Below the pieces are notes generated by a model. The model searched no databases. It saw nothing but the letters and a program-made list of their open reading frames with translations, and was not told the DNA's origin. Both the position numbers and the translations under genes were made by a program. From positions 12,648,001-12,712,000 of the forward strand of contig OZ287753.1 of assembly GCA_965649765.1 (NCBI GenBank): a DNA stretch of 64,000 nt, written 5' to 3'. The DNA is from Bispira polyomma (taxonomy: Eukaryota). Shown here in pieces: positions 12,406 to 55,785 of the stretch. Every line of letters begins with the position of its first letter. The first letter of the stretch is position 1.

Positions 12406-14475
12406 ATGGCACTAATATATCGTTGTTTACTTCAACTCACAGTCTATCTAGTAGTGTATTACATAAGTATCAATCATGTTGCCATTGGTGCTGAGACACA
12501 CTGTCTCCAGTATCACAAAATGAATATACACCCTAGGGCACTGTCATGTGATCCTGTAAACCCACCTCTTACAAACTATTCCAAGCCTGATTATATCTGG
12601 CCAGCCACATTCAATTCCTGTAGTAGTATTTCAGCCATTCAGTTGCTGATAGAGTCAGCGGATATCAATACCTTAGTGATTATTTACACCTCAAAGTACT
12701 CAACTTTAGTGTACAGTATGGAAATGAATACAATACTTCCTGTGGCAATGTATTCCATTGATACTGAGTTACAAAATGTCAATGTTAAAGCTAGTATTAT
12801 TGACACATTCTATAAACTCAACAACAAGAACCGTCAGGAACACTTTCTGCTAATTGGAGAAGCAGATTTTCTTATACGTGCTTTGCAAATAGTCAACTCT
12901 GTAGATGAAATGTTTAATCAACAAGGATATTTCACCTTTTTACATCGGTGGATTATTCTCACCCAGGACCAGAGTCTATTACATTTAGAAAAACATATAT
13001 CAAATATACAACACTTAACAGCAGTTACTGTATCACAGATGAACAGCTTCGTGAACATTTATGCAGCAATGTGGAAGCCTCATGGACGAAAGTTTGAGCT
13101 CATAGGTGATATATCAATGTCTTCTGAAATATGCATGTTAAGGTATATAAATAGTCAGATCACACTTTTTCCTAATGAAATGTATGGTTTCAATGGACAG
13201 TTGTTTATAGTTGCCACTCAGCTTTGGCCAGTCTATGTCATCTCTGAAGAGCACTATCCTAACAGAACTATGTATAAAGGTACTTTAATGGAACTTCTTT
13301 TTGTTGTAAGCCAATATCTTAATTTCACCTTTGAACTGATAATACCACCTGGTGGATATTGGGGAGGTAAAGTCAATGGCACTTGGAATGGGATTGTAGG
13401 ACTCCTACACACCAAAGAAGCTGATATCAGTGTTGGTACATTAACAATGACGCCTCAAAGATTAAGCGTCATGGATTTTGCTGAAATTCCTGTTGTGTTT
13501 GACACTCATGTGGCCATCTACAAACCACCACCCTCACTGCAAACCACACTGCATTTATATCTAACACCTTTCAGTAATACTGTTTGGCTAATGATTGTAA
13601 TGGTTTGGTTTGGAATAAGCTTATTTATTAGTGTTATTGGAACCATTCATACATACTGGATCAATGGACATATGCCAAGTGTGAGATTCCAAGTGTGCAT
13701 TATCATTGATACACTGTGGTGTTCATTTGCTTCATTTTTCACTCAGAGCATCAAGATTAAAAGGTTAAGAATGTCTACTTCCTGTTTATGGGGGACTTGG
13801 TGGCTGTTTGCCCTTCTTATTGTCATGGTGTGGTCTGGAAATATTATATCTTTCATCACAGTCAAACTACATCCAGATCTTATCTCTGGACTAGACTATC
13901 TAGCAAAGCAGAAAAAATTAAAAATCATCACTCTACCCAGTAGTGCTTTCGAAGAATTTTTGTTGACATCCAGTGACTCGTTGCTGCACCAGCTTGGTCA
14001 AATGGTGCTCTTGGCAAGGCAGGAAGAGCCTAAACTCTTAACAACTGATCATGATGGTCTCATGTCCAAGGTAAAAGCAGGTGGATATGTGTACTTTATA
14101 GATCAAATCACATTAAAAGATGAAGCATATAACAGTAACTGTTCCCTCACTATTATTCCCCAGAGCATTTATCCATTTGGGTATCATTTTGGACTACAGA
14201 AGAATTCCGCTTACCATCAGGTGTTCACTAAAGCAGCCATTAAAATCAATGAGGTAGGACTGTACAAATATTGGGTTGGAAGGTATTTGAAAGATGTAAA
14301 GGAACAGGCATGTATGAATGCCATGACATCACATCCACAGGAGTTTTTCTATCTTCAGACCATGCTCATTGGTTTTACCACGATGCTCGGGATAGCTGTT
14401 ATTATTTTTGGGCTGGAAAATATCATATATGTGATTAAAATGAAAGGAACGGCATATAGAAATAAAGAAGCTTAG
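12406..14475 (+). CDS. Intronless divergent ionotropic receptor (IR, variant iGluR family), 689 aa, intact
   Basis: Signal-peptide-like N-terminus; S1 WGGKVNGTWNGIVGLL...ADI...T.TPQR..MDF; M1 PFSNTVW; pore TLWCSFASFFTQS; M3 WWLFALLIVMVWSGNIISFITV; S2 GYHFGLQKNS; M4 and short C-tail; single uninterrupted ORF. Confidence 0.93.
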   Translation: MALIYRCLLQLTVYLVVYYISINHVAIGAETHCLQYHKMNIHPRALSCDPVNPPLTNYSKPDYIWPATFNSCSSISAIQLLIESADINTLVIIYTSKYSTLVYSMEMNTILPVAMYSIDTELQNVNVKASIIDTFYKLNNKNRQEHFLLIGEADFLIRALQIVNSVDEMFNQQGYFTFLHRWIILTQDQSLLHLEKHISNIQHLTAVTVSQMNSFVNIYAAMWKPHGRKFELIGDISMSSEICMLRYINSQITLFPNEMYGFNGQLFIVATQLWPVYVISEEHYPNRTMYKGTLMELLFVVSQYLNFTFELIIPPGGYWGGKVNGTWNGIVGLLHTKEADISVGTLTMTPQRLSVMDFAEIPVVFDTHVAIYKPPPSLQTTLHLYLTPFSNTVWLMIVMVWFGISLFISVIGTIHTYWINGHMPSVRFQVCIIIDTLWCSFASFFTQSIKIKRLRMSTSCLWGTWWLFALLIVMVWSGNIISFITVKLHPDLISGLDYLAKQKKLKIITLPSSAFEEFLLTSSDSLLHQLGQMVLLARQEEPKLLTTDHDGLMSKVKAGGYVYFIDQITLKDEAYNSNCSLTIIPQSIYPFGYHFGLQKNSAYHQVFTKAAIKINEVGLYKYWVGRYLKDVKEQACMNAMTSHPQEFFYLQTMLIGFTTMLGIAVIIFGLENIIYVIKMKGTAYRNKEA

Positions 14476-15008
14476 CACTACAGTCTTGCATGGTAGTTTA
14501 TCCATTACTTTGAAAATCACACTGTTATTCATTAAAAATGAAACATCTTTTATTCGTTTCCTCTTTTGATTGTATAATTATTTTCCACACTTTCAATTCG
14601 GAAAATCTTTTAGCCCCAACAATATTAAATTTTCCTACTATGTGTAGTATAAAATTTGTCAATAATATACTGTTTGTTTTTATTTACCTTCTTTTGTTGC
14701 GTTTGAACATTTGGGTGTGACCTGTACACCTGGCTAACTCTAATTTTCACCTGTAATTTTAACCGCCAACATAATCTCAAATATTCTCAGACTGGTAACC
14801 CCCAAAATACAATATTTTGATTCATTTTGGAAGATTTTGTAGCATGACAAGAGAAACATATATATTTAGATATTTATTCAATATTCTTCATGATAATACA
14901 AAATTACAATGGAAACAAAATAATTGTCACAAATTACACTACATAAGTGGTCGACATTAGTTGGGAGGAACATAAATTGAGACAGTAGTGTACAGTTTCT
15001 GTCTCAAC

Positions 15009-15426
15009 TGTTACATATAAGGACATTGTGGTGTGTTAAAGCAGAACCGGTCTAGTTAGTACTAATGATTCTTACACTCTGCTCGAGGGATCTATTTATA
15101 GATTTGGGGAAACCCCTAAGCTTCTAGAAGCTGGTTCTATTTTGTTTCTGTTGTTATTGAAGTTATCTTAATTTGTTTACATTTTTAATCTGGAACATTC
15201 TAGCAATTGTTTACATATTCCAGCAACTTTCTCTAGCAGTGGTATATATAAGGGTTGACAGCCTGGCCACAGAGTAGAGTTTATTGAGTTGGTGTGCTAT
15301 ATGAACTGCTATCAAATTATGTAATTGTTATTTTATTTGTTAAAAAAATTTGTAAAGTGAAACTTTTTTGTTACGACCTAAAAGCAACCGGTAATTGCTA
15401 CCGCGCTTGCTCCCGTGACCGTAACA
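15009..15426. mobile_element. Solo LTR (418 bp), probably Gypsy-type
   Basis: TGTTAC...GTAACA termini; 4-bp TSD CAAC (15005-15008, 15427-15430); internal TATATATAAG near 15243; absent from duplicate B. Confidence 0.88.
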
Positions 15427-15459
15427 CAACTTATGTCCATCCTAAGTAAAATTCACTTG

Positions 15460-16310
15460 TAGAAATGTCTAAAACAAATGGAAGGTGAAATCAAATCTTG
15501 TTCAAACGTTTGTCAGTTTGTTGACATTTTTACTGAATAGGCTTGCCCTTCTCTTTGACACACTAGCTCTTGCTTTATTAAGACTCTTTCGGTGGGTACA
15601 CTTCTGGCAAGAGGTGCTAGGCCTGTTTTGCAACCTTTGACAGCAAAGAGTAGAACAGCTTTTTTCTTCTTTAGATGGTTCTTCAGTTAAATAGAGTTCC
15701 ACTTCCTTTCTGTATTTTTATTATAATCTTATCTAGGAACAGAGTTTTCCTCAACCACTATGACATCTTCAATTAAACCAATCATAAACTTATAAATTTC
15801 CTTTGTGTTTCTTGGAGGTCTGTTTATAAACATTTTAGGCATCTAAACCATCATGATCCTGTTTAAGATTTGGGTGATCTGGTTAGTTATCCTGGGTTTC
15901 TTTTTAATGACCACATTTGGGTTATCTTGACGAAACTTAGTCTTGGCTGCCTCAAACAAAAGTTCCCTGGAACTTGCTTTCTCCTATGTCGACACATAAA
16001 ACACACATTGTACCAGGCAAGAAACTACTAAAAAATTTTGACCTGATCCTTTTGGTATCTTGTTTTTGAATTCAAATTAATTTAAACTTCCATTTTTTTA
16101 TAGTTATGTTGTTTTCTTCGCTGTCTGACAAAAAGGCTTGCAATTTTGCGAAAGTTGTGAGAACAAAGGGATGTGTAGTAATAGTAAATACCCTAGTGAA
16201 CATTACTTGGGATGGATCTGATTTGAATTTTGTGTTTAACATGGCTTTCAACATATTGTTCAGGTTATATCATGGTGAGGGGCCAGTTTTAGTGCTAGAG
16301 GAAAATAGTG
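15460..16310 (-). mobile_element. hAT (ZBED1-like) transposase remnant, C-terminal dimerisation region
   Basis: Minus strand ELYLTE..., SVPTERV, and VSKRRASLFSKNVNKL match the hATC consensus (SVP.ER.FS, S.RR..L...NV); homologous to 56310-56735. Confidence 0.7.
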
Positions 16311-16805: not shown

Positions 16806-17042
16806 CAAGCATTGCGCTTCACAATCACTGGTCTCTCACCTCTGAGCGGTGTGAGTTCGAATCTCGTCGATGCCTATGTGGGAAAGGTGGTAGTTCCTTA
16901 CTCTGGGCCGCTGGTTTTAGTGCAGAACCTTGATCAACTGTATGCAGTGTTTCCTCCAGCGTTTCCAACTACCCATCCCAATATAACCTAAACAGGTACT
17001 AGAGTGGACGTTAAATATCCAAATTCAAAAAAAAAAAAAAAA
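16806..17042 (+). mobile_element. tRNA-derived SINE, 5'-truncated, subfamily a
   Basis: Matches other copies from acaagcattgcgcttc to gtggacgttaaatatccaaattc plus poly-A. Additional 3' fragments at about 17191-17220 and 17508-17578. Confidence 0.9.
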
Positions 17043-20575: not shown

Positions 20576-21490
20576 TCAGAATCCACCATCCAACATCTGT
20601 TTATGTCATCCGAAATGCAATATGTATATTTTTTAGATCGTCTCCTGAATCCTGAGTTGATGTCGACCAGGTGTATTCTATTTCTTTATTTCTTGATAAT
20701 TTGATTTTTTCATATGACAGAAATGGATGTTGGATAACAGATTCAGAAGCAAAATTTTAAAGGTATATTTGCTCCTTATGTTCAATTAATGAATGACGTT
20801 GTTTAATAAATTAGTCTGTTCAAGTTTACATTGGTACATCATATTCAGTAACTTATAAATATATACTACATTTATTCATCAAAATTATTATTTAGATTTA
20901 TATTAACATCAAATTGTATCGCCTTACATTTAACTATTATACCTTGTTTTTCTGTAACATACTTTGTTGTTGGGAACCACAAAACATTCAACAAAACATT
21001 CAACAATTGATATATTTACATCAGTCTATGCTGATTGGTTAGTCTCTCAATATGGCGCCTACAGGTGTTTGCTTACAGTGAAAAATGATGTCACTGGCTG
21101 GGGGCTATTGATTTTATATCAAATCTTATGGAAAGAGATGTTAGCTTTACAGCAGCACATGACACCACAGACAACTGAAGCTTTTGCATTATTAAATGTA
21201 GTTGTGTAGACTATGTGGTTGATTGGTATTAACTGAATAAAACTGTTTCAAAAGTAAGGATGCAATGATTGTGCTTTAAATAGTTATATGATTATTTTAA
21301 CCTGAAAAATTAACGTGAAAAATATAGATTAAACTAAAATATTTGTCCCACTATATAAATAAGAGCTAACTGCTGGACAAATAGAAGTTTGGATAATGAG
21401 TTTTACTGTGAAATCAAATGGCATACATGTTTACGTTATGAGACATATGATTGGTGTGTAGACAAATCAAGCTAGAATCAAATACTTACC

Positions 21491-23324
21491 ATGGCACTAA
21501 GGTGTTTATGTTTCTGTCTGTCTACTCTCTGTATCTTGGTACATCACATAACAATAACAACTTTTGCCATTGACATTGAGATCACTTGCTTGAAGGGTCG
21601 TAACAGTTGTGCACGCAATGATGCAGTGTCATGTGACCCATTGAACATATCTATCAAAAACTATTGCAACCCTTATTATACCTGGTCATCCACACTGAAA
21701 TACTGCACTAGTATTTCAAGCATTCAGTTACTGCTGAAGTCAGAGGATATAAAACAATTGGTGATAATTTACAGCTCAAAGTACTCTGCTTTAGTGTATA
21801 GCATTGCAATGGATACATCACTTCCTGTGGCTATGTACTCCACTGATACTGAGTCACAAACAGTTAGTGTTGCAGAAAGTATTACCGACACGTTCCATAC
21901 AATCAACAAAAACTATCAGGTGCACTTTCTGTTGATTGGAGAAACAGATTTTCTTATAACTGCATTGAAAATAGTTAATTCTGTAGATAAAATGTTTAAT
22001 CAACAGGGATATTTCATATTTTTGCATAGGTGGATTATACTAACCAATAATCAGAGTCTATTGCATTTAGAAGCACATGTAGAAGATATACAACACTTAA
22101 CTGCAGTTACTATTTCAGAGCAAAACAGCTATGCAGATATTTACTCAGCAATGTGGAAACCTCATGGCTGACAATTTGAATTCATTGGTAATATATCAAT
22201 GACTTCTGAAACATGTAGGTTGCACTTTATTAATAGTCAAAGTACATTTTTCCCCAATCAAATGTTTGGTTTCAATAGACAGTTGTTTAAAGTTTCCACT
22301 CAGCTTTGGTCAATCTATGTCTTTACTGAAGAAGACCATTCTAACAAAACTATTTATAAAGGTATTTTGATGGAAATTCATTTTAAGTCAACATCTGAAT
22401 TTTACCTATGAACTATTAATTCCACCTGGAGGGTACTAGGGCAGTAAAGTTAACGGTACTTGGAACGGGATTGTTGGACTACTGCACACAAGAAAAGCTG
22501 ACATCAGTTTGGCTACATTAGCATCCACACCTCAAAGATCAACTGCTTTGGATTTTTCTGAAATGCCTGTTGTGTTTGACACTCATGTGGCCATCTACAA
22601 GACACCACCACTATTGCAAAACACACTGCAGATGTATTTAAAACCTTTTAAAAAGAACGTATGGCTGTCTATTGCTGTGGTTTGGCTCGGATTAAGTCTA
22701 TTTATTGCTTTAGTTGATGCTATTAATGAATACTGGAGCCGTGGAAGAATGCCAAGTATAAGACAGTTTCTCTGTTTCCTCAGTGATGCACTGTGGTATT
22801 CGTTTGCTTCTTTCTTCAACCAGAGCATCCAGGTCAAAAGGTCAATCATGTCAAATTCATGCTTGTGGGGGGCTTGGTGGTTGTTTGCAGTACCTATTGC
22901 ACTGGTGTGGTCTGGTAATATTATATCTTTCATCGCAGTTAAACTATACCCAGATCTTATCTCTGGACTAGACTATCTGGTGCAGCACAAACAATACAAA
23001 ATCATCACACTCCGGAGCACTGCTTTTGAGGAAATGATCTTAACATCTAGTGACTCCTTACTGCACCAACTTGGTCAAATGATGCTGGAAGCTAGGCAGG
23101 AAGATCCAGAACTCTTAACACTGAGCCATGATGGCCTGATTTCAAAGGTAAAGGAAGGTGGATATGTATACATTATAGATGAAACCACATTAAAAGTTGC
23201 AGTGTACCACAGTAACTGTTCTCTGAGTATAATCCCTCAAAGTATAATACACATAATTAAATGTAGGTGGAACAAGACAAAGGTAGAGGCAGCAAAAGTC
23301 TGTACAGATTCTGCAAAATATTGA
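21491..23324 (+). pseudogene. IR pseudogene, paralogue of 39207-41291
   Basis: TGA at 22169-22171 (CGA in paralogues), deletion/frameshift near 22376, TAG near 22437, and an in-frame 255-nt deletion near 23243 removing late S2 and M4 (equivalent to 40956-41210). Confidence 0.92.
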
Positions 23325-25785
23325 AATAAATCACTATTTTAATTTCTTTAATGATTAGAAAAATAAAAGTGGATGGGCACAAACATCATTGAAACCTTAT
23401 TCATTTTAACCATTAATGTATTATGTGAAACACTAAACAGAAGGTTTCCCATGAAGAGGGCGGTGTTCAATGCGGCAAACAATTGAATTTTCCCATGTTA
23501 CTATTTGCAAGATTTTACTATCTTCTTTTGAAGCAGAAAGGTATTTAAACAGTTCCAATTTTACTTGAGTGGACATTCAAGTACTGTTAACGTTGAAATG
23601 TTGATGGTTCACCCTACAAGGAGAAGCATGGTTTACCTAGATATGAGTGTATTTTACAGTTGTCTGAATCAAAATATAATATCCGTCTTGTAGATTGGGC
23701 GATGGAAGTTGACATGTAGTTTGCAAAAGGTAAGCAACATGTCATCTAAGATTTGGGGTATGTTTAGAAAATGTAGTGATATCAGCCACTGAGAAACAAG
23801 AAGCTGGAACAGTTGACAATTGGCCTACAGATTCAATCCTGCTTTTGACACACTGGTAAAGCACAGTGAATAAAATTATAACTTTGTAAGTACTTAACCA
23901 TTTGTTATTATCGTGGCTCCTACAATTGACTGCACATTTTTAATTATTTTGATTGTGTAACCATTGTATAACTCTATATATCTGTAAGACTGACCTCAGA
24001 TAAAAATTGTTTAAATTTTAATGTCCGGGTCTCACAAAACTTGATGTGTGTTGTTGTTGTCTTTTTCCAATGGATTGATTACATCATTTATTATAACTGA
24101 CCATTATTTGAAAGTACAATAATTATTAGGACGTCATTATCCTCAATATCAAGAAGTTCTGTATTGTCTGTTTAACAATATTTTTAATAACATGAATAAA
24201 AGGAAAATAACATATATATTCGAATGAGAATTAAATATTTTGAACTTAGATTAACTTTTAATCTAAATTTCCAATAGGCATTTGCAATTCCGACAAGAGA
24301 ATATCTGCATGATTACTTAAATTAACGTGTTTGACTAAGCATTTCTTAAGCTTATTTAAACTTAAGGTTGTGTGAAATAAGCTAAAACCTTTATGTAGCC
24401 ATGTAGAATATTCTTCATATCTTAATTGTATGTATTGTCAAAATCCAGTTTAAAGTGATAACAGAATGCACTCCTTTATGATGGGGCAACTAAAAATACA
24501 GTTATTCTAAAATCTAAAACTGCTACTGTTGATAAAATAATTAAACTGGTACAAATTACAAATGTACAAAACCATGTTCATCTGATGTTATTTGCACCTG
24601 TGCTAAATTTCAGCTGTACTGTAACATTGTCTTTGCAACACTTAGGTCAGCTGCAAACCATATACTTTAGATAACTTTCTTGAAAGGCAATATCACTAGA
24701 TGGAAACGTTTAAAATCTACTATCAAACTGTATCCAATCTCGCCATTGTATAAGAGGTCATAGAAATACCAGTAGCATAACTGTTGGATGATTGCCAGAG
24801 TTGGAAGATACTGCTATAGTCCATTGGGTCAACTGTTATGAACATAAACTAACTCTGATGATTGTAGTGATCAATAGATAGTCATATAGTGAGAGAACTA
24901 AACAGTGTGTTGTACCACAAGAATTAGTCCTTCAACTTGACCTAAGCTCAGATTTCATTTCAAGTTTGCATCAGTACACAATGTCACTGCTGTACGAGGA
25001 ATTAAATGTCATTGTGAAAAGATGAAAGTCAAAATTAAACTAAGTATCAAGTCTACTATATAGATCTACAAGAGTGCTTTTTTATACAAGTGTAATGATG
25101 AAGCTGGACACTGATAACTATGGCATGCAGGTCTGTCTGAATGTCAGTTACAACCACAACTTTAAAATGTTAAACCCAATCTGATTGTAAACGTCTGAAT
25201 ATTTGACATTATAGATTTTCATAGATTTACTATGTACTCTGTACAAAGAAAATCAATGAAAAAATTCACTTGTATGTATCGAAAATTATTTTTATTTTTA
25301 AAAGTCTAACAATTGACTTCGTTATATAGTTAAGAGTTACTAAAGAACTGTTTTCAATTTTCTTTGAATAGTCTGCACAAATGCCTATAGCTTCAGATGG
25401 AAGGTGCACTGTATGCTTTTGTCCAAACACCTCTAAAATAGTAGATAGGGCACCAAAATCTGGATTGTTGCAGGAGGTTGTGCCCGTAATTTGTAGTATT
25501 AATATAATTAGTCATCTTAATTCTATAATGTTTTGGAAATCAGTATTTCAATATATCTTCAACCTGTGATAAATGCACTGTGCATTAATCACATCTACTA
25601 TAATTTATCTATACAAAGTATCAATAATGTATACATTAGTATAATAAAAAAATACTGTGTACGTAAAAATGTGCGTTGGAAGTTAATTTATAAAATTGCC
25701 TTTTTGTGTCTGCATAGATTAAAAAATACCACTGTACCTCACTAAATAAACCTCAGTGTGCAGGTGTAAATTTTTACTGTTTTAA

Positions 25786-35891: not shown

Positions 35892-36558
35892 TAGCTGTTC
35901 CACTGTCAAGATAGATTCGGAGCAGTCCCGATTTTGGGCACCCCAGACGTAATCCTGTCGCTCTACCAATTGATCATGATGATCTGGACAGTCAGGGTCG
36001 TAATCCTTGTAATCCGGGGATCAAATAACATGATCTGAACATCTTCAGAAAATGGGTCTTTGGGCCCGGATATTCGGGAGTAGCCCTGAGTAAACCTAAT
36101 GCCACCTCAGTTGATCTGGGTGTATTTCCCCCCCATCCCCTTAAAACAACAAAATAGAATCCTCATTGTTGTAAAGATCAACCTGGGTGGCTTTCCCAAC
36201 TGTTAAGATCAACTGTGGTGGTTCTCCTGATTGTTAAGATCAACTAGGTGGCTTCCCTAATTGTAAAGATGTTCTTTGGGGGAAAACATTTTACTGTCTG
36301 GAACATAAAAAAACTTTTTTACCCAAAACCCTAGACAAACAGAGGAGATCAGTCAAACAGGGTGTCACCCAGACTGATCTTTACAATTGGAGAGGGGGGA
36401 TTCCCTGGGGCCCGGTTATCGTAGTTGAATAGTTGGGTCCCTAAAGATCAGCTGGGGTGAAACGCTGGATTATTGTGGGCATTTTTAAATATTTTAAGTA
36501 TTTCTTGTCCTGGATCATAATCTGCCTTTCACGTCAGGATCTTGACAGTGGAACAGGG
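35892..36558. mobile_element. MITE with 18-bp inverted repeat CTGTTCCACTGTCAAGAT
   Basis: Inverted repeat at 35895-35912 and 36539-36556; internal AAGATCAAC repeats. Confidence 0.7.
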
Positions 36559-38876
36559 GCAATATCCAATATAATACCCTGTTCCATTATCAAGACTAGT
36601 CGGGAGAGGTGTTGATTGTCTTATCTTGGTCACTCAGGAGGCATAAAGGGTGGAGAATTTGCATAAATTTGAATGCAAATATCAAAAAGATAAGTCTGGT
36701 GGGCCCAAAGGATAAGTCTTAACCTTAAAAGGATAAGTTTTAACCCCACCACGATCAAGGTAAGTTTACCAGTCCTTCTGAGTTGCGACTCCTACTGCAA
36801 TTTTGGTCCTTGGAGTGGCCGATTTAAAAAGATAAGTCGATGGATGAAAAAGATAAATCTCATAAGTTCATCAAAATATATATCATTGGAACAAAAGATA
36901 GGTCCTTGGAAGGCTGCGACTGAGTGACCATGAAATATCGGCCAATAGTCACCCACTTGCAGAGGTTTTCAAACATGAAAACAAAAAATGAGTCTCACAA
37001 CCTCAATGACTTTCACGATTATGTCCCAGTGTATGGCCCAAATACATAATTGTAACCATCAGGGTCTTCAATTGGCATAGTGAAAGAGGGGTACTACATT
37101 CAACAAAAACCCTTGGGTACACTTTCTGATAATTCGAGTAACACATTTAGTTATAACTGCATTAAAATTATTTAGATAAGTTGTTTAACCAACAAGGATA
37201 TTTCTGCTTTTTACACCTGCCAGGTGGATTATTCTCACCAATGATCAGAGTCTATGCCTTTTAAAACACAAAAAGCAACTATGCAACGCTTATCAATTGA
37301 TCCTTTCATCAATTATTTGTTGAGTTAGAGCATCACGCTGCTGAGTTATATGACACCCACAGACCTGTGGCTCTACAAGTAGTCAATATATATGCAAATA
37401 AGTCTCAATTTAAAAAGGATCTAATCCATAATTCACGTTGATTTTATATCAAATACTATGGGCAATAATGGGCCCGGATATTCGGGAGTAGCCCTGAGTA
37501 AACCTAATGCCACCTCAGTTGATCTGGGTGTATTTCCCCCCCATCCCCTTAAAACAACAAAATAGAATCCTCATTGTTGTAAAGATCAACCTGGGTGGCT
37601 TTCCCAACTGTTAAGATCAACTGTGGTGGTTCTCCTGATTGTTAAGATCAACTAGGTGGCTTCCCTAATTGTAAAGATGTTCTTTGGGGGAAAACATTTT
37701 ACTGTCTGGAACATAAAAAAACTTTTTTACCCAAAACCCTAGACAAACAGAGGAGATCAGTCAAACAGGGTGTCACCCAGACTGATCTTTACAATTGGAG
37801 AGGGGGGATTCCCTGGGGCCCGGTTATCGTAGTTGAATAGTTGGGTCCCTAAAGATCAGCTGGGGTGAAACGCTGGATTATTGTGGGCATTTTTAAATAT
37901 TTTAAGTATTTCTTGTCCTGGATCATAATCTGCCTTTCACGTCAGGATCTTGACAGTGGAACAGGGGCAATATCCAATATAATACCCTGTTCCATTATCA
38001 AGACTAGTCGGGAGAGGTGTTGATTGTCTTATCTTGGTCACTCAGGAGGCATAAAGGGTGGAGAATTTGCATAAATTTGAATGCAAATATCAAAAAGATA
38101 AGTCTGGTGGGCCCAAAGGATAAGTCTTAACCTTAAAAGGATAAGTTTTAACCCCACCACGATCAAGGTAAGTTTACCAGTCCTTCTGAGTTGCGACTCC
38201 TACTGCAATTTTGGTCCTTGGAGTGGCCGATTTAAAAAGATAAGTCGATGGATGAAAAAGATAAATCTCATAAGTTCATCAAAATATATATCATTGGAAC
38301 AAAAGATAGGTCCTTGGAAGGCTGCGACTGAGTGACCATGAAATATCGGCCAATAGTCACCCACTTGCAGAGGTTTTCAAACATGAAAACAAAAAATGAG
38401 TCTCACAACCTCAATGACTTTCACGATTATGTCCCAGTGTATGGCCCAAATACATAATTGTAACCATCAGGGTCTTCAATTGGCATAGTGAAAGAGGGGT
38501 ACTACATTCAACAAAAACCCTTGGGTACACTTTCTGATAATTCGAGTAACACATTTAGTTATAACTGCATTAAAATTATTTAGATAAGTTGTTTAACCAA
38601 CAAGGATATTTCTGCTTTTTACACCTGCCAGGTGGATTATTCTCACCAATGATCAGAGTCTATGCCTTTTAAAACACAAAAAGCAACTATGCAACGCTTA
38701 TCAATTGATCCTTTCATCAATTATTTGTTGAGTTAGAGCATCACGCTGCTGAGTTATATGACACCCACAGACCTGTGGCTCTACAAGTAGTCAATATATA
38801 TGCAAATAAGTCTCAATTTAAAAAGGATCTAATCCATAATTCACGTTGATTTTATATCAAATACTATGGGCAATAA
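36061..38876 (+). repeat. Exact-looking tandem duplication of 1408 bp (36061-37468 / 37469-38876)
   Basis: No differences seen by eye; TG microhomology at the junction. Confidence 0.93.
36575..37093. mobile_element. Second, related MITE-like element
   Basis: Starts TACCCTGTTCCATTATCAAG (similar to the previous TIR) and ends GTGAAAGAGGGGTA; imperfect TIRs; internal GATAAG repeats. Confidence 0.45.
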
Positions 38877-39206
38877 TGCACCTTAGTCATTGCAGAATCT
38901 TTTGAGTTACTAATTGTAGTTGTATAAACTGTCAGCGTGGCTGCTTGTTTAACGTTTACCATGTGTGTGCATAAAAAAGATTGCAGTGACTATACTTTAA
39001 CAAATTATTTAATGATTTTTCATATAAAAACTTGACAGAAAGATATAGAATATCCGAATTTTGTTTTACAATCTAAGTACGAGCTAACTACTAGAAAAAT
39101 AAATGTTTGGGTAATCAGTTTTGTTTGGAGAGAGATGGTATGGATAGTGACACTATGAGACATATGATTGGCATATAGACAGATAAAACTAAAGTTCAAC
39201 ATAATT

Positions 39207-41291
39207 ATGGCATTTGGATATTTTTGTTTCATTCCGTCAACCATCTGTGTCTTGGCACATTACTTAACAATAAAAACATTTGCCATTGGGACTGAGGTCA
39301 ATGGCCTTCAGGGTCATAAAAGTTGTGCATGCCATAATGCAATGTCATGGGAACCATCTCTCAACAACTATTCAAACCCTGATTATAGCTGGCCAACTAC
39401 ACTTAAATGCTGCAATAGTACTTCAACCATTCAGTTATTGCTAGAGTCAGTGGATATAAAGAATGTAGTCATAATTCACAGCATAAAGTACTCTGCTTTA
39501 GTGTATAGCATTGCAATGGATACATCACTTCCTATGGCTATGTACTCCACTGATACTGAGTCACAAACAGTCAGTGTTAGAGAAAGTATTACTGACACCT
39601 TGCATACATTCAACAAAAACTATCAGGTGCACTTTCTGTTAATTGGAGAAACAGATTTTCTTATAACCGTATTAGAAATAGCTAATTCTGTAGATGAACT
39701 GTTTAAACAGCAAGGATATTTCACATTTTTGCATCGATGGATTATACTAACCAATAATCAGAGTTTATTGCATTTAGAAGCACATATACAAAATATACAA
39801 CACTTAACCGCAGCTACTGTTTCAGAGCCAACCAACCATGTAGATATTTACTCAGCAATGTGGAAGCCTCATGGTCGACACTTTGAATTCATAGGGACTA
39901 TATTAAAGACTTCTGAAACATGTAGGTTACAGTTTATTAATAGCCAGAGTACAATTTTCCCCAATCAAATGTTTGGTTTTAATGGAAAGCTGTTTAGAGT
40001 TGCTACTCAGCTTTGGCCAGTCTATGTCATTCGTGAAGAACATTCTCCAAACAGAACCATTTATAAAGGTACTTTTATGGAAGTTCTTCGCATTTTAAGC
40101 CAACATCTAAATTTCACCTTTGAAGTTATAATACCACCTGGTGGATACTGGGGTAGTGAGGTGAATGGCACGTGGAATGGTATTGTTGGACTACTGCATA
40201 CTAATGAAGCTGACATAAGTGTTGCTCCTTTAGCAATCACTCTTCAAAGATTGAACGCTATGGATTTTGCTGAAATCCCTGTTGCATTTGATACTCATGT
40301 GGCACTCTATAAGACACCACCTCCATTGCAAAACACATTGCAATTATATTTAAAACCTTTTAAAAATGATGTATGGCTGTCTATTTGTGTGGTTTGGATT
40401 GTATTTAGTCTATTTACTAGTTTAATTGATACTACTCATGAATACTGGATACATGAAAGAATGCTAAGTGTAAAACATATTCCCTGTTTTCTCAGTGATG
40501 CACTGTGGTATGCTTCTGGTTCTTTCTTCACCCAGAGCATCCAGGTCAAAAGGTCAAGCATGTCTACATCCTGCTTATGGGGGGCTTGGTGGTTGTTTTC
40601 CCTGCTTATTGTAATGGTGTGGTCTGGAAATATTGTATCTTTCATCACAGTCAAACTATACCCAAATCTTATCCCTGGACTAGACTATCTAGCACAGCAG
40701 AAGATATACAAAATCATCACTCTCGGGAGCACTTCTTTCGAGGAAATGGTATTAACATCCAATAACTCCCTAATGCACCAATTTGGTCAGATGATACTGG
40801 AAGCTAGGCAGGAAGATCCAGAACTCTTAACTCTGGCCCATGATGGCCTTTTATCAAAGGTGAAAGAAGGTGGATATGTATATATTATGGATAAAACTGC
40901 ATTAAAACTTGCAGCTTATAACAGTAACTGTTCCCTTAGTATAATCTCACAAAGTCTTTTTTCAATTGGGTATAACATTGGGCTGCAAAAGAACTCAGCT
41001 TACCAGCAGGTGTTCAATCAAGCTGCTATTAAAATCAGTGACCTAGGACTGTACATATACTGGGCTAAGCAGTATGAAAATGAGGTAAATGAAGAGGAAT
41101 GTATGAATGCTGTGCAATCGAATCCTTTGGAGCTTTACCATATACAGTCCATACTCATTTGTTTTGTCACAATGCTTGGGATAGCTTTTATTTTTCTTGT
41201 TATAGAAAATATAATATATGTAATTAAAAGAAGATGGATCAAAACATTAGCAGAGACAGCAAAATTGGGCAAAATATTAATAAATTATTAA
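39207..41291 (+). CDS. Intronless divergent ionotropic receptor, 694 aa, intact
   Basis: Same domain motifs as 12406-14475 (GTWNGIVGLL, T.QR..MDF, VWSGNIVSFITV, GLQKNS). ATG at 39207 aligns with paralogue starts and is preferred to the TTG at 39168. Confidence 0.93.
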   Translation: MAFGYFCFIPSTICVLAHYLTIKTFAIGTEVNGLQGHKSCACHNAMSWEPSLNNYSNPDYSWPTTLKCCNSTSTIQLLLESVDIKNVVIIHSIKYSALVYSIAMDTSLPMAMYSTDTESQTVSVRESITDTLHTFNKNYQVHFLLIGETDFLITVLEIANSVDELFKQQGYFTFLHRWIILTNNQSLLHLEAHIQNIQHLTAATVSEPTNHVDIYSAMWKPHGRHFEFIGTILKTSETCRLQFINSQSTIFPNQMFGFNGKLFRVATQLWPVYVIREEHSPNRTIYKGTFMEVLRILSQHLNFTFEVIIPPGGYWGSEVNGTWNGIVGLLHTNEADISVAPLAITLQRLNAMDFAEIPVAFDTHVALYKTPPPLQNTLQLYLKPFKNDVWLSICVVWIVFSLFTSLIDTTHEYWIHERMLSVKHIPCFLSDALWYASGSFFTQSIQVKRSSMSTSCLWGAWWLFSLLIVMVWSGNIVSFITVKLYPNLIPGLDYLAQQKIYKIITLGSTSFEEMVLTSNNSLMHQFGQMILEARQEDPELLTLAHDGLLSKVKEGGYVYIMDKTALKLAAYNSNCSLSIISQSLFSIGYNIGLQKNSAYQQVFNQAAIKISDLGLYIYWAKQYENEVNEEECMNAVQSNPLELYHIQSILICFVTMLGIAFIFLVIENIIYVIKRRWIKTLAETAKLGKILINY

Positions 41292-48120: not shown

Positions 48121-48149
48121 ATGAGTGGCGAAGGGCATAAACAGTTAAA

Positions 48150-48800
48150 AGTTAATCAGCAGACAGTCATAGGGATGAAAAGTAGTTAATCAGGGCAAGA
48201 CACTACCAGTTATAGAGGTCAAATGTAGTTAATTAGGGCGAGACACAAACAGTCATAGAGATCAAAACTAGTTAATTAGGGCGAGACAGAAACAGTGATA
48301 CAGGGCAAAAGTAGTTAATTGGGACAAGACACAAGCAGTCATAGAGGTCAAAAATAGTTAATTAGGGCGAGACACAAACAGTCATAGAGGTCAAAAGTTG
48401 TTAATTAGGGCTAGACACAAACGATCATATAGGTCAAAAGTAGTTAATCAGGGCAAGACACAAACAGTCATAGAGGTCAAAAATAGCTCATCAGGGCAAG
48501 ACACAAACAGTCATAGAGGTAAAAAATAGTTAATCAGGGCAAGACACTAAAAGTCATAGGGTCAAAAGTAGTTAATCAGGGCAAGACACAAACAGTCATA
48601 GAGGTCAAAAGCAGTTAATCAGGGCAATACACAAACAGTCAAAGAGGTCAAAAGTAGTTGATCAGGGCAACATACAAACAGTCATAGAGGTCAAAAGCAG
48701 TTAATCAGGGCATGACACAAACACTCATAGATGTAGGTCAAAAGTAGTTAATCAGAGCAGGCCACTACCAGTCATAGAGGTCAAAAGTAGTTAATCAGGC
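48150..48800 (+). repeat. Second array of the 43-bp minisatellite, about 15 copies
   Basis: Same unit and same 3' flank as 7562-8830. Confidence 0.95.
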
Positions 48801-49522
48801 TATCAACAAAAGTCAGCTTCAGCAAAATTGGTCAGTATTTGTCATTTTAATTACATAAACTATTGCATTATGTCAATAATATGTAAACTATTTATCAAGA
48901 TGTTATCTTAACAATCAGCCCTCCCCCCCCCCCCCCCAAAAAAAAAAAAAAAAAAAAGAAAAAGGAAAAAAGAAAGTTGTGCCCTTGTAAAAAAAAATAT
49001 AGAAAGGTTGGTCCTTATACTCTTTCGTAGCTTTCTTATCTACTAAATATTTATTGTTAAAATGCTTTGAAACATCACAGCTGTGTATGTTTCGCCACTC
49101 AGAATCGCCCACTCAGTCATGTTCTTAATCAAAGTAATCACTCCATAGTACCCCTGTGTCAGCAATACAGTGGTGTGATTTTATGAAATTGTTAAAATAC
49201 AAAAGATTCTGCCCTAAAATTATAGTAAAATGCATTTATTGCAATGCAAGACTCGTGAGGTAAGGAACTAATCAATGAAATTCACATGTTCGGGAATTCC
49301 GTAAATTCCTTAAAATATTATATCTGCCACTTTGTAAATTTTTTTTTTTTTGAGGTTTTAACTCAAAATAACGAAAAATTATGTGAAGAACAAATTTTTG
49401 AAATAGTTTTTAGGGTAATTAAGCTAGAAGGTTATATATTCATTTTTGTCTGTTGGTTTGCTATGTAGCTTATGCATTCCATACAGCCACTTTGAGATAT
49501 GTGATCACTTCAGCGGTCACTG

Positions 49523-49777
49523 GGGGCCGCGGTGGCCTAGTGGTTAGCAAGCATTGCACTTCACAATCACTGGTCTGTCACCTCTGGGCGGCGTGAGTTC
49601 GAATCCCGTCGATGTCTATGTGGGAAAGGTGGTAGTTCCTTACTGTGGGCCGCTGGTTTCAGTGCAGAACCTTGATCAACTGTATGCAGTGTTTCCTCCA
49701 GCGTTTCCAACTACCCGTCCCAATATAACCTAAACAGGTACTAGAGTGGACGTTAAATATCCAAATTAAAAAATTCA
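49523..49777 (+). mobile_element. tRNA-derived SINE, subfamily a, inserted after the duplication
   Basis: Perfect A and B boxes; empty site cactg|actcttt at about 9461-9472 in copy A; no clear TSD. Confidence 0.92.
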
Positions 49778-52700
49778 GACTCTTTGTTTTAAGAATGGTG
49801 GAAATTTAGCCAATACTTGACCAGGCAAAGTTAAGATTTAAATGTTGAAATTCTTTACCATCTCAAGATTGGCCAGCAAAGCCAAAGCCTTTCTTAAGAT
49901 TGGGTAGCAAAATTAGTTCATCTTAATATTTTTAAACCAACTTAAAATTTAAACTGTTGTAAAAATACCAAAAAATGTTTTACCCTCTAGCCCATTAAGG
50001 TTATCGAAATTCTAAGTTGGGATATAACAAGTACAATGTAATTTTGAGTTTTTTATTACTTACCAGATGTACAATTGAAATCCAGTGGCACTAAAACCTT
50101 TTTTCTGGAAGGATTCCCCTTGTTTGTGACGTCATATTGTGTCCACGTATTTCTAGTCAACTGGTCAGATTTGTCATTCTTTCTATCTTTTGCTTGCATT
50201 ATTTTTGCCACACTTTCAATAAAGCAATTGTTTAGCTACATAGCACTTGTAAATTTCGATACCAAAATAATGAAGTTACAAATATGTTAGCACATAAAGG
50301 CGATATTGAAAAGTTTTTGGGTCAATGGCCACCATGCCAGGTCTAAGTTGGATTTTTGAAATGTTCCGTAAACTGGAGCACTTACATATGGAGATGGAAG
50401 AACACATAGCTTCCCATATCCAACACCAGCAGCTCGAATGCTGAAGATTTAATATAGAGCATATGTTGGCCCCTCCTCATTTATCTCAAGCTTCAATCTA
50501 TGCATTATCACATAAACAGGCTAATAGATTACCGGTCTACTAACTATTGCAAGGTCATCTTATTAAACCTTCTATACCTAGTATTGATACTTGTCCGATT
50601 AAAATCATTTGAACCAATGGCTATTTATTCTAACAATGATACCCTACTGTGTTGGCTATAAAAATCTCAAACTTTTTAACCAATCAAATTGAATATTTTA
50701 TGTTTTTAGGTATATCAAATCTTTATAGACAGAAAATAGACAGTTCCTGAAAAAAAGTCTTTCTATTTCCAGAGAAAAACATCTATACACAGCACTACAT
50801 TCCAAAGTCATATGATGATTGACTTTGAAATAGACTAGCAGTTGATATATCCTATATTTTATTTCTACACTCTACATTATTTACACATTGTACAAACATT
50901 AATCATTTGTAAAATAAGATCACATTAGGAGTTTGAGATAAGCATAAATTAAAATATGGATTCTATGTTTAATAAGTGAACAAAAGCCACGGTAACCATA
51001 ACTTAATGTCTGACCTATTCTATGTACACCCGAGCTAGAGTAACCTTAGCAGTTTAAGTTGGCAAAGCTGATCTTAAATTAAGCTTAAAATCAGTTGAGT
51101 TTACCCTGAAATTTGTATATTTAAGGTAGCCTTAAGATTTGATGAGAATGTAAATTACAAGTATGTAAAGTATATGAGAAAAAAACACCAAAAACAGCAG
51201 TAAAATGAAATAGAGAAACAGACACACCGGCAAGCTAAAAACTAATTAAAATAGAGGTGCGGCAGTATGCTCAAAGTGTCGTTCAGTTTGTAAGGTTCAC
51301 CCTTTAAGCCACCACTTAGCTCACTCATGCTTTATAATCAGCTGCATAATGCAGCCTACAAAAGCACTAATCAGATTCCTTTAGATATATCCATACACTT
51401 TTTGACAATATGTAAACTTATTTTTGCATTCTTTTACAGAACTATCGGGACGATTGCCGTGGTGATAGTGTTTGATTTTATGTCACAGCTGTTGTACAAC
51501 ACTCTTGCTGGCCTCTGACAGACCATGGATTTGCTGAACCTAAATATTTGCAGTTAGCATTACCCAGGCCCTTGGTTGTGCTGAGGTCCCGGTTCGAATC
51601 TCGGTCGAGGCTTTAAGTGGGAATGTTGACAGTTACATGGTCACTAGTTTCCAGTGTCAAATCTTGACCAACTAGTATACACTGATTTTCTCAAACACTC
51701 AAACTGCCCATCCTGATATGACCTATAAAATATTTGAAAGTGCAATTAAAGCAGCTGCCACAGACATATGGGGAGGAGACCCCGATAATGCAGTCGGGAC
51801 CAATCCTTCGTATTTTACATTGATTCCAAAAAAAAGTGGGACATTTCTTGTCCCATGACTATAATCGTAGTGGTTCCTGACTGTAACTATAGATAGATAG
51901 CAAGGACCTATAGATCGAGACAGATCTGGGATTTGAATCGTAAGAAACCCAAATATTCTTCCGATTGACCAAGATAAGTCGTTATAACCAGTTACTATCA
52001 TAAAGATAGGTCATTTTCATCACTGATAGTTCGGTACCTTGTTCCTAATAGGTTGGGGCCTCCATCCCAAGTGCATGCTACTTTGATAAGATAGATCTTT
52101 CAACTTTGCAATCATGAGTCGTATGGAACCTCGCAATTTGCCTCCAAAACTATATATAATGGGGCAGAGCTTACAAATTCAGACAGTTTTTATTGAGAAG
52201 TCAACTGAGCAACATGATACAACAAAGGATAATAGATATTGCCCAAATTCCACAAGCGTAATTCGCATTTATGTAGTTACAATTACTTGCACAAAGAGAT
52301 ATTTGCATCTTGGGCCGGGTGAGACAAAAGATGGGTTCCTTCCACCAGGTGATTGCTCCAGAGCGAAAAATATATAATGGCGTTGTGCCGTTCAAGAATC
52401 ATTTTCATCAAGTGAAGCGTAATATAAATTTGCAATACATATCTGATGTCATGTATATTGTAGATAAAATGGTACATATTTCAAAAATATCCAGCGATCA
52501 TACAAAGTATTACATAGGGCATCACAATGTCATGACAGCATATGTATCATTTTTGTACCTTTTTTATGTAGTTCCTCGTCAATCTATTATCACAAATGAC
52601 AATATATGAGTTTGGTAATGGAAGGATCATTGATGATGTCTCTATGGTAAAAGCCTACACTTTCTTCTTTTAGTACCCTATGAAATAAAGTTACAGTCAA

Positions 52701-53836
52701 TACATAAAAAATGGTACATCACAAGATCCGTTAAATCACCATAAAATTGATAGTCAAAAAGTTGTGTGAATATATTTTGATATTATCAAGATTTCAAAAT
52801 ATAACAATTTCTATAACTTTCTTTCAGAGCAAAAAATATGATGGCTTAACCATTATAGAATAATAATAAAAGAATAATGACAGAGTGATTACAAAGTAGC
52901 AGTTTCAAAATAAACCAAGATAACAGACAAATCAAGATTTGGAAATATTCACCTTTGGAAAATAAGTGATAGTTATTATAATAAACATGTTAGTTTTCAG
53001 GAAACAATAGGCCTTTTACCTTTTGTCTGCCTAAATTACAGCTGCATTTACCAGCAATGGGGTTTTGAATCTATTGTAATCAAACAGGTGATTTTCATTA
53101 TTTACCATATGCATTGTGTGACAACTTAGTGACATATTGCAGCAGACAATAAACTGGAAGAAGGTGCACAATCATTAGACATGCCAGCCATTCAGTCATA
53201 TCATTTAAATATGAAAAAGTAATATACATTACTAACATCATTTGCTGTACCGTTGTCATTCTTATATACATCTAATTGACATTCCAGTGCAGAAAGCATG
53301 GATCTCAGTTTAAAAGCACCAACCATATACTGTTGAAATGTCGCTGTTGATTTTAACTCACAGAAAATAGTATGTCACAGGACAATAAACTTCATAAAAG
53401 ACAGGGTTAAATGTCTTTTGGTTTTGTGTAACTTGTTTGTTTCAGTAACTTATGAACACACAGGAACAATTGCTGAAGCAATCAGAACTACTAACTGTAA
53501 CTGCCAATGCGGATTATGCCTTGATACTGATATTTACCTTATGTGTACAATGTGAGTTAATATTACACAGGAACTGTATGTTTGCCAATTGATCTTAGTT
53601 TCAGATATTTTAGATCACATGTAAACACCTGAACTGATGAAGTGAACATATTTTTCAAGTTCATTGTCACTGATTCTTGATACTGTATGAATACACACTA
53701 GATGAAAGTGAAGTTTAAAATGATTATATTTAACAAATTGGAATAAATATTAACATGACAGCAAACTATTGACTATACATTGTGCTTGCTACCTGTTTCT
53801 CGAAACTAGTTCACTTACATAGAAAGTTATATTATC

Positions 53837-55785
53837 ATGTTAGTAATATATTGTTGTTTACTTTAACTCACAGTCTATCTAGTAGTGTATTACATTAGTA
53901 TCAATCATGTTGCCATTGGTGCTGAGACACACTGTCTCCAGTATCACAAAATGAATATACACCCTAGGGCACTGCCATGTGATCCTGTAAACCCACCTCT
54001 TACAAATTATTCCAAGTCTGATTATAGCTGGTCAGCCACATTTAATTCCTGTAGTAGTATTTCAGCCATTCAGTTGCTGATAGAGTCAGCGGATATCAAT
54101 ACCTTAGTGATTTTTTACACCTCAAAGTACTCAACTTTAGTGTACAGTATGGAAATGAATACAATACTTCCTGTGGCAATATATTCCATTGATACTGAGT
54201 TACAAAATGTCAGTGTTAAAGCTAGTATTATTGACACATTCTATAAACTCAAGAACCATCAGGAACACTTTCTGCTTATTGGAGAAACAGATTTTTTTAC
54301 ATCGGTGGATTATTCTCACCCAGGACCAGAGTTTACTACATTTAGAAAAACATATATCAAATATACAACACTTAACAGCAGTTACTGTATCACAGATGAA
54401 CAGCTTCGTGGACATTTATGCAGCAATGTGGAAGCCTCATGGACGAAAGTTTGATCTCACAGGTGATATATCATTGTCTTCTGAAACATGCATGTTACTG
54501 TATATAAATAGTCAGATCACACTTTTTCCTAATGAAATGTATGGTTTCAATGGACAGTTGTTCAGAGTAGCCACTCAGCTTTGGCCAGTCTATGTCATCA
54601 CTGAAGAGCACTATTCTAACAGAACTATGTATAAAGGTACTTTAATGGAACTTTTTTTGTTGTAAGCCAATATCTTAATTTCACCTTTGAACTGATAATA
54701 CCACCTGGTGGATATTTGGGAGGTAAAGTCAATGGCACTTGGAATGGGATTGTGGGACTCCTACACACCAAAGATTAAGCGTCATGGATTTTGCTGAAAT
54801 TCCTGTTGTGTTTGACACTCATGTGGCCATCTACAAACCACCACCCTCACTGCAAACCACACTGTATTTATATCTAACACCTTTCAGTAATATTGTTTGG
54901 TTAATGATTGTAATGGTTTGGTTTGGAATAAGCTTATTTATTAGTGTTGTTGAAACCATTCATACATACTGGATCAATGGACATATGCCAAGTGTGAGAT
55001 TCCAAGTGTGCATTATCATTGATACACTGTGGTGTTCATTTGCTTCATTTTTCACTCAGAGCATTAAGATTAAAAGGTTAAGAATGTCTACAGCCTGCTT
55101 ATGGGGGACTTGGTGGCTGTTTGCCCTGCTTATTGTCATGGTGTGGTCTGGAAATGTTATATCTTTCATCACAGTCAAACTACATCCAGATCTTATCTCT
55201 GGACTAGACTATCTAGCAAAGCAGAAGAAATTAAAAATCATCACTCTACGCAGTAGTGCTTTCGAAAAATTTTTGTTGACATCCAGTGACTCATTGCTGC
55301 ACCAGCTTGGTCAAATGGTGCTCTTGGCAAGGCAAGAAGAGTCTAAACTCTTAACAACTGATCATGATGGTCTCATGTCCAAAGTAAAAGAAGGTGGATA
55401 TGTGTACTTTATAGATCAAATCACATTAAAACATGAAGCATATAACAGTAACTGTTCCCTCACTATTATTCCCCAGAGCATTTATCCATTTGGGTATCAT
55501 TTTGGACCACAAAAGAATTCCACTTACCATCAGGTGTTCACTAAAGCAGCCATTAAAATCAATGAGGTAGGACTGTACAAATATTGGGTTAGAAGGTATG
55601 TGAAAGATGTAAAGGAACAGGCATGTATGAATGCCATGACACATCCACAGGAGTTTTACTATCTACAGACCATGCTCATTGGTTTTGCCACGATGCTCGG
55701 GATAGCTGTTATTATTTTCGGGATGGAAAATATCATATATGTGATTAAAATGAAAGGAACGGAATATAGAAATAAAGAAGCTTAG
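53837..55785 (+). pseudogene. IR pseudogene, recent duplicate of 12406-14475
   Basis: CAA>TAA at codon 10; deletion of about 68 nt near 54295; 2-nt loss near 54652; 43-nt deletion near 54770 between CAAAGA repeats. Confidence 0.93.

Follow-up and report, generated by a model that had tools for sequence, protein, structure and literature searches.

Composition and duplication of the receptor array

The window, a 64-kb stretch of the Bispira polyomma genome, contains five paralogous genes (A to E), all on the + strand, of which two are intact, two are pseudogenes and one is a relic. A tree of the window copies divides them into two subtypes, (A,E) and (D,(B,C)), with support of 100/100, and a family-profile search of the 64-kb window returned no sixth copy. 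The earlier note had described the same five copies, in two subtypes and lacking coding introns, and on each of these points it was correct; A and C each consist of one open reading frame (ORF), with which a 5' UTR intron would be compatible. The region of the array is rich in mobile-element remains.

Copy A (12406..14475, +) is an intact single ORF for an ionotropic receptor (IR)-type protein of 689 aa, laid out as a signal-like N-terminus, an R2-only amino-terminal domain (ATD), S1, M1-M3, S2 and M4. Copy E (53837..55785, +) is a recent pseudogene of A, to which it is 96.7% identical, and is broken by a stop at 53864 (codon 10) and by frameshifting deletions of 68, 1 and 43 bp. The two genes lie in segmental-duplication units (7560..15908 with A and 48160..56735 with E, both +) that have ~8 kb of surroundings in common, including the same satellite of 42/43 bp (7563-8828 and 48163-48799), and the flanks adjoining the genes are 93-95% identical. 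These shared surroundings, which the earlier note did not cite, are the strongest evidence for duplication at the DNA level.

The second intact single ORF, copy C (39207..41291, +), encodes an IR-type receptor of 694 aa. Copy B (21491..23324, +), a pseudogene of the C subtype with about 81-82% identity to C, is interrupted by stop codons at 22169 and 22437 and has lost 5 bp near 22379 and ~250 bp internally near 23240. The 5' flank of B (21108..21474, +) is homologous to that of C (38846-39191) at 69% over 305 columns, the match running from 21177-21474 against 38895-39191 with a further 24 bp at 21108/38846, and the end of B with its 3' flank (23239..23429, +) is a 69% match to 41206-41378 of C. 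Both of the shared B/C flanks claimed previously (21110-21490 vs 38840-39206 and 23340-23490 vs 41300-41420) are therefore genuine matches, the former at 69% identity only and the latter shorter than claimed, with half of it in the coding end. Copy D was likewise rightly recognized as a relic, while its extent was underestimated. Its first part (35510..35890, +; about codons 3-130) is 74-75% identical to B and C and has SINE pieces immediately upstream (35067-35477); a second part (37095..37295, +; about codons 134-195), overlooked before, follows past a repetitive insertion of ~1.2 kb and is repeated, also unnoticed, at 38503-38703. This repeat lies inside an exact 1408-bp head-to-tail tandem duplication (36061..38878, 1410 identical bases), which is either a very recent event or an assembly artefact.

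Reads from three sequencing runs (two samples from one study, one of which may be the source of the window itself) fall in every one of 30 bins, including those of intergenic DNA. The contigs listed for these two samples span ~80% of the C frame without gaps, 40665-41054 falling outside the listed long pieces, and no stop codon in C occurs among the listed read differences, to which near-identical paralogues may contribute.

The multi-kb flanks shared by A and E, together with the B/C flank matches, bear out the proposed DNA-level duplication and support the conclusion that the copies spread by tandem or segmental duplication accompanied by gene death. Intron loss appears to be ancient and to lie at the base of the clade described below, and retroposition at the origin is likely, though unproven. 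An intron-bearing parent gene is not identifiable, and the 1.5 kb that follow each of A, B, C and E contain no stretch of ten A or longer, as expected if the event is old.

Architecture of the encoded proteins

The search for PF10613 and PF00060 that had been suggested for these genes placed both families above the Pfam cut-offs in A and C, in neither of which Pfam gave an ANF_receptor match. Both products have the S1 - M1/pore/M3 - S2 - M4 layout of the iGluR superfamily, and the ligand core predicted in an AlphaFold2 model (pLDDT 78) resembles iGluR cores (Z ~30, rmsd ~2 Å over ~250 residues). In profile-profile comparisons the N-terminal domain finds its only counterpart in the lower lobe, both of iGluR ATDs (probability 88) and of gastropod IR-like ATDs (probability 99.4), with reversed controls at 0.05 and 0.9. 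The N-terminal region has a median length of 257 residues in the clade to which A and C belong (n=21), against 410 (n=9) and 422 (n=12) in the groups compared. The ORFs might have been the final exons of longer genes with introns, but this reading was discarded because the hydrophobic N-termini start at the ATG, relatives are equally long and no upper-lobe exon is found in the window (best E 2.2).

The D2 segment spans 58 residues, versus 86 in two sequences that are presumably IR8a-like co-receptors, so labelled by a motif and by the D2 insertion, and the beam/CREL insertion of co-receptors is thus absent. Both intact genes have R, F and D at the glutamate triad, keeping the S1 arginine and the S2 aspartate with a phenylalanine at the S2 threonine site. 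The arginine is kept in 21 of 21 clade rows and stands next to pocket positions that are highly variable across the clade, while a threonine at the S2 site is found in three of the 21, compared with seven of 12 AMPA/kainate/delta rows. In the M3 gate motif, which is degenerate, all 21 clade rows have W where all 12 synaptic rows have Y. Conservation of a pocket residue can reflect a structural role and not ligand binding, as the available part of one recent study states (bioRxiv 10.64898/2026.09.30.755715). A and C lack both the features of the IR25a/IR8a co-receptors (full ATD, beam insertion) and those of AMPA/kainate/delta receptors (two-lobed full ATD, conserved M3 motif), and from their sequences the products look like IR tuning subunits. 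This assignment to the IRs is drawn from architecture and from exclusion from the synaptic clades, rather than from grouping with validated IRs.

The closest structural parallel considered is the tuning subunit IR75b in the cryo-EM structure of IR8a/IR75b, reported to have an R2-only ATD, no beam and a degenerate M3 (bioRxiv 10.64898/2026.09.30.755715, in the part available). A and C resemble it further in an open ligand clamshell that retains R and D/E, and in a non-canonical pore apex. They differ from IR75b in having no Pfam match to IR75A_N at E<=0.01; a lead to this family (score 0.89) came from the Atlas, which is made up of clusters of at least 50 members and returned only arthropod-dominated IR-like clusters, the family being present in 26% of the members of the cluster concerned.

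Phylogenetic placement and the wider clade

A and C fall inside a fully supported clade (100/100) of unnamed proteins of 640-740 aa, which joins gastropod IR-like and annelid proteins at 99/96; the nearest named relatives come from gastropods and annelids rather than from the arthropod IRs. The sister proteins, among them Patella, Elysia and Haliotis proteins (P0019, P0022, P0026), are full-length with an N-terminal region of ~410 residues, and although the databases label the gastropod ones 'glutamate receptor-like' or hypothetical, they are probably IRs. Grouping with AMPA/kainate/delta is rejected by the AU test (p=0.002), as is grouping with delta alone (4e-6) or with AMPA/kainate alone (1e-5). 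The trees have long branches, include only two named arthropod tuning-IR-like rows and contain neither IR25a nor NMDA, and a motif screen found no IR25a or NMDA sequence among the 210 proteins; the two IR8a-like rows sit at the base of the tree without resolution. The prior claim of an IR rather than a synaptic iGluR thus stands as regards AMPA/kainate/delta, in trees from which NMDA and IR25a are absent.

The description of the family as lineage-specific needs to be qualified. The clade, marked by its own N-terminal signature, takes in no fewer than 34 of the 210 proteins examined, with identities down to 22% and some of about 50-60% elsewhere, and A and C are separated from their nearest foreign relatives at 87/84 in one tree, whereas another supports a different grouping at 89/70. 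A database name was looked for in 21 members of the clade, all of which lacked one. Full-length relatives on very short contigs, possibly transcripts (646 aa on 2083 bp and 690 aa on 2209 bp), suggest that these genes too have a single exon, and relatives elsewhere are apparently also clustered, as judged solely by contigs of equal size (P0003/P0006; P0009/P0196/P0199). A single-protein scan of JGI metagenomes confirmed no relatives.

Selection, proposed function and comparison with known arrays

Synonymous divergence places the A/C split (dS 0.65) before that of B and C (0.34) and of A and E (0.055). Between A and C dN/dS is 0.32 (Fisher p=5e-25), falling to 0.17 in S1, a pattern indicating that the two sequences diverged under purifying selection. 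On the recent branches the synonymous/nonsynonymous counts of intact and broken copies are alike (8/18 in A against 11/19 in E, p=0.78; 38/67 in C against 40/73 in B, p=1.0). Since the intact copies were recently no more constrained than the dead ones, the present-day function of A and C is unproven.

The reading that is considered probable is a tandem array evolving by birth and death and made up of single-exon genes for IR tuning subunits, with a putative role in co-receptor-dependent chemosensing. Copies multiplied by unequal DNA-level duplication, in the order given by the dS values, and three of the five then decayed. By analogy with insect IR structures, no subunit would function alone; in sensory neurons each would combine 2:2 with a co-receptor of the IR25a type, and closure of the clamshell on a small polar ligand may open a cation pore. 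IR8a is reported to have originated in arthropods (bioRxiv 10.64898/2026.09.30.755715, available part), so that the partner of A and C would be of the IR25 type. More speculatively, the ligand might be a water-borne, non-glutamate compound of carboxylate or amino-acid-like type, and tuning might differ between A and C, which are unlike at pocket positions 341-343 and 510 (C numbering).

Several other explanations may account for these observations. IR-type subunits could detect temperature, osmolarity or internal cues, or have a role outside neural tissue like some of the intronless acetylcholine receptors of molluscs; this is unlikely, even though IRs are reported to mediate thermal and humidity sensing as well (bioRxiv 10.64898/2026.09.30.755715, same part), expression of some of the expanded intronless molluscan nAChRs is described as preceding formation of the nervous system or as belonging to immune and stress responses (PMC6896357, in part), and the full-ATD sister proteins recall the full-ATD arrangement of IR93a, because an invariant arginine amid variable pocket positions, combined with rapid gene turnover, better fits ligand-diversifying chemoreceptors. 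That the array is instead dying, with A and C as unused open frames whose low dN/dS records old selection only, is distinctly improbable. Three of five copies are indeed broken, the branch-wise ratios do not set the intact ones apart, the region is packed with mobile-element remains, and six of eight changed codons in C are nonsynonymous among the 40 of 368 read differences shown; against this, two frames of 2.1 kb are free of lesions where each sister has four or more, and, as a weaker point given the possible source sample and near-identical paralogues, the listed contigs cover ~80% of the C frame gap-free and no listed change creates a stop.

A shortened synaptic or GluD-like glutamate receptor is the least credible explanation and is largely refuted already. 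GluD2 and GluK2 are the best PDB sequence matches, in a PDB copy without any listed IR, and the R/-/D pocket pattern is common to GluD, yet all three synaptic groupings are rejected by the AU test, the R2-only ATD and the degenerate M3 depart from the synaptic pattern, and turnover of single-exon copies is ill-suited to synaptic receptors.

The array is probably a known kind of birth-and-death chemoreceptor array; the kind of cluster is familiar and the animal group is little studied. The divergent IRs of Drosophila and other arthropods are described as single-exon tandem arrays shaped by non-allelic recombination after presumed retroposition (PMC2924276, Croset et al. 2010, in part), and the present array resembles them in its single exons, tandem copies, pseudogenes and partial loss of the glutamate triad. 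It differs in that its nearest named kin are gastropod and annelid proteins and in the N-terminal signature of its own clade (34 of 210 proteins). Molluscan IRs are grouped as IR25 and IR-A to IR-D, with 7-22 exons in the annotated IRs of four gastropods and small tandem clusters in gastropods, according to the available parts of two studies (PMC12837371, PMC11682238); the array is like the gastropod proteins in its sister position in the trees (99/96 with an annelid row), homologous R2 lobe and tandem clustering, and unlike them in having a single exon and an R2-only domain in place of a full N-terminal region of ~410 residues. The intronless nAChRs of molluscs are ligand-gated channels that took the same route, retroposition (for the array only presumed) and then tandem duplication, but they belong to an unrelated superfamily with far larger expansions (PMC6896357, in part). 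Titles and the beginnings of abstracts yielded no description of intronless IR arrays in molluscs or annelids, and published sequence supplements may include the clade.

The published IR sets, in the parts of the sources available, are of small size, with 7-22 genes in a gastropod or bivalve and 28 over the spionid genomes, and the molluscan and annelid genes are intron-rich where their structure is reported. It is possible, and is put forward tentatively, that the clade is a so far undescribed subfamily of spiralian IRs, large and of old origin, which derives from full-length intron-bearing spiralian IRs and repeated the arthropod 'divergent IR' programme independently by losing all introns and the upper ATD lobe and by tandem birth-and-death expansion. 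Because none of the clade members checked bears a database name, it may provide a principal set of chemoreceptors in some mollusc or worm lineage that lacks annotation, missed in counts of ~7-28 IRs per species or group. If so, spiralians too would build large IR repertoires in the manner of arthropods, through a single-exon, fast-turnover clade, and losses of the R1 lobe and of introns could recur; each single feature has precedent, so that the surprise is moderate. Genes of a single ORF are easily cloned from genomic DNA, which makes ligand screening with IR25a straightforward.

Composition and growth of the array

The five same-strand paralogues recognized in the earlier note (two intact, two pseudogenes and a relic) are borne out by their reading frames, lesions and alignments; the array is thus confirmed, and its reading as ionotropic receptors (IRs) is largely supported. 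Two copies have an intact open reading frame, A (12406-14475, +) of 689 aa and C (39207-41291, +) of 694 aa; they are 64% identical to each other. Two more are pseudogenes: B (21491-23324, +), ~82% identical to C, carries a pair of early stops and deletions of 5 bp and ~250 bp, and in E (53837-55785, +), 96.7% identical to A, codon 10 is a stop and deletions of 68, 1 and 43 bp shift the frame. Copy D (+) is a relic that retains roughly the first 195 codons in two pieces, with ~1.2 kb of inserted repetitive sequence between them; an exact tandem duplication of 1408 bp provides a further copy of the second piece. This duplication (36061-38878) lies within an otherwise diverged stretch and may be an assembly artefact. 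The DNA tree of the 5' parts of the copies has the topology (A,E) versus (D,(B,C)), in agreement with the two subtypes proposed earlier. Because, relative to the intact copies, the pseudogenes show deletions but no more than small insertions, coding introns are absent from every copy, as had been claimed; the copies may have a 5' UTR intron.

The array spread by DNA-level duplication, and the common flanks uphold the earlier claim to this effect. A and E lie in segmental units of ~8 kb (7560-15908 and 48160-56735) with a 42/43-bp satellite common to both (upstream of the genes at 7563-8828 and 48163-48799) and gene-adjoining flanks 93-95% identical; between B and C, homology at 69% identity extends over ~300 bp on the 5' side and a short stretch on the 3' side. 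Synonymous distances of 0.65 (A/C), 0.34 (B/C) and 0.055 (A/E) indicate that the duplications occurred in that order. Short tandem repeats of 120 bp (42933-43165), 109 bp (44672-44999) and 189 bp (46475-46847) lie between C and E.

The array is an instance of a type already described: Drosophila has single-exon divergent IR arrays attributed to non-allelic recombination following presumed retroposition (PMC2924276), and the five copies are likewise single-exon and duplicated at the DNA level. Here we only infer retroposition; a poly(A) remnant (a run of at least 10 A) was looked for in the 1.5 kb following each of four copies and was not found. The loss of introns is probably older than the array. 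Intronless chemoreceptor families are described as a general pattern (PMC11526382), and mollusc nAChRs as products of retroposition then tandem duplication (PMC6896357). In contrast, four gastropods are reported to have 9-22 IRs each, in small tandem clusters, every IR with 7-22 exons (PMC12837371). IRs of molluscs and annelids are known, with sensory-organ expression (PMC4890853, PMC11682238, PMC11730519), and IRs lacking the amino-terminal domain (ATD) are reported in spionid annelids (PMC11730519). By title or opening of the abstract, none of the papers listed in the literature searches describes intronless IR arrays in spiralians.

Receptor architecture and phylogenetic placement

A and C have the architecture of IR tuning subunits. 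Both score above the Pfam thresholds for the two families that the earlier note proposed to check, PF10613 and PF00060, and neither has an ANF_receptor match. The AlphaFold2 model of C (pLDDT 78) superposes on iGluR ligand cores with Z ~30 and rmsd ~2 A over ~250 residues. In profile-profile comparison, with reversed controls scoring <1, the ~200-residue N-terminal domain pairs solely with the lower-lobe part (R2) of AMPA/kainate/delta ATDs (probability 88) and again with only the lower lobe of gastropod IR-like ATDs (probability 99.4; gastropod row short of ~50 residues); a six-frame search of the window found no exon for the upper lobe. Median length before S1, the first ligand-core half, is 257 residues in 21 rows of the clade with reduced N-terminus that includes A and C, versus 410 in nine sister rows and 422 in 12 synaptic rows. 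For the D2 segment, where the co-receptor beam is inserted, the clade has 58 residues, against 86 in two rows that we take to be IR8a-like from a motif and the D2 insertion. At the three glutamate-contact sites (GluA2 R485, T655 and E705), A and C have R, F and D; the R is retained in 21 of 21 clade rows, and adjacent pocket sites are highly variable. The gate motif of the M3 helix is degenerate in the same 21 of 21, with W in place of Y. The R2-only ATD, absent beam and degenerate gate motif are shared with the insect tuning receptor IR75b as described by cryo-EM, which is reported to pair 2:2 with a co-receptor; the beam of the latter is said to be conserved in spiralians (10.64898/2026.09.30.755715).

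A search of 1.84 billion representative proteins gave 4936 matches, of which the best 150 were taken. The closest proteins listed are unnamed ENA and Logan entries (38-60% identity). The N-terminal signature is common to 34 of the 210 proteins compared, A and C included. None of 21 clade members checked has a database name (~14 further members lay outside that check); among all relatives looked up, the nearest with a name are from the gastropods Patella, Elysia and Haliotis and the annelid Dimorphilus. These neighbours suggest that the window comes from a lophotrochozoan. The Dimorphilus protein P0198 (871 aa) apparently joins two IR cores in a single gene model, which suggests that IR genes lie side by side in tandem in Dimorphilus.

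Trees of the ligand and channel core were built from 136 of 161 proteins, then 61 selected from 210, then 37 of those 61 under a mixture model; they have long branches. Support is 100/100 for the clade, 99/96 for its union with Dimorphilus and the gastropod group, and 98/94 for its separation from AMPA/kainate/delta receptors. AU tests on 26 rows reject its grouping with AMPA/kainate/delta (p=0.002), delta (4e-6) and AMPA/kainate (1e-5). The clade lies outside these receptors in trees built without IR25a or NMDA rows and with just two named arthropod tuning-IR-like rows. Support for uniting A and C to the exclusion of their nearest relatives from elsewhere is weak (87/84 in one tree; a different grouping at 89/70 in the 37-row tree), and the family thus extends beyond this genome. 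The IR reading is largely supported by architecture and exclusion from synaptic clades, and its chemosensory and lineage-specific parts are unproven. The clade could coincide with a molluscan group among IR-A to IR-D; that it is an undescribed spiralian subfamily with independent loss of introns and upper ATD lobe is conceivable, if rather doubtful.

Selection and candidate function

Beyond the architecture, phylogenetic exclusion and duplication history demonstrated for the A/C family, there is a good probability that A and C are sensory-neuron tuning subunits. Each intact gene would encode a subunit that joins an IR25-type co-receptor in a channel of sensory neurons, where a small polar ligand, probably carboxylate-bearing and not glutamate, would shut the clamshell and so open the cation pore; partner, tissue and ligand are as we infer them. 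Differences at pocket positions suggest that A and C are tuned differently. A non-chemical or non-neural role is unlikely, and a synaptic role is very improbable given the AU rejection of all three groupings tested.

Past purifying selection on the family is evident from dN/dS of 0.32 between A and C (669 codons, Fisher p=5e-25; S1 0.17, second half S2 0.26, N-terminal domain 0.33). On the other hand, recent-branch polarized changes (synonymous/nonsynonymous) show no difference between intact and broken copies (A 8/18 versus E 11/19, p=0.78; C 38/67 versus B 40/73, p=1.0). This likeness indicates that B and E died late. That A and C function today is likely rather than proven, and we consider a dying array improbable. 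Read contigs from two samples of a single study (three runs), which may be the window's own source, span most of C gap-free, and the 40 of 368 read differences covered touch at least eight codons, with six nonsynonymous changes and no stops. At least five differences, E318R and H331L among them, are bunched at 40158-40198, beside the pocket tryptophan in S1 of C, and may represent either an allele or a near-identical paralogue.

Other elements in the window

A decayed Polinton/Maverick-like element (57400-63900) contains a BIR domain (57694-58020, E 2e-17), a chromodomain (59149-59544), a weak cysteine protease match (61055-61519) and NADAR fragments. Frames at 60119-61073 and 62582-63892 (-) are presumably capsid-like and DNA-polymerase-B-like, judged by eye; searches of these frames gave no supporting match. 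Broken frames at 700-3400 (-) and 32300-34800 (+) are retrotransposon-like, perhaps DIRS-type, the former with a weak RVT_1 match (1209-1619, E 4e-4). Five copies of a SINE-like element of ~250 bp, 88-97% identical, whose head resembles a tRNA and whose tail is rich in A, lie at 4868-5122 (-), 16806-17031, 35067-35317, 49522-49773 and 62119-62377, and the depth of read contigs suggests that the element occurs in very many copies.
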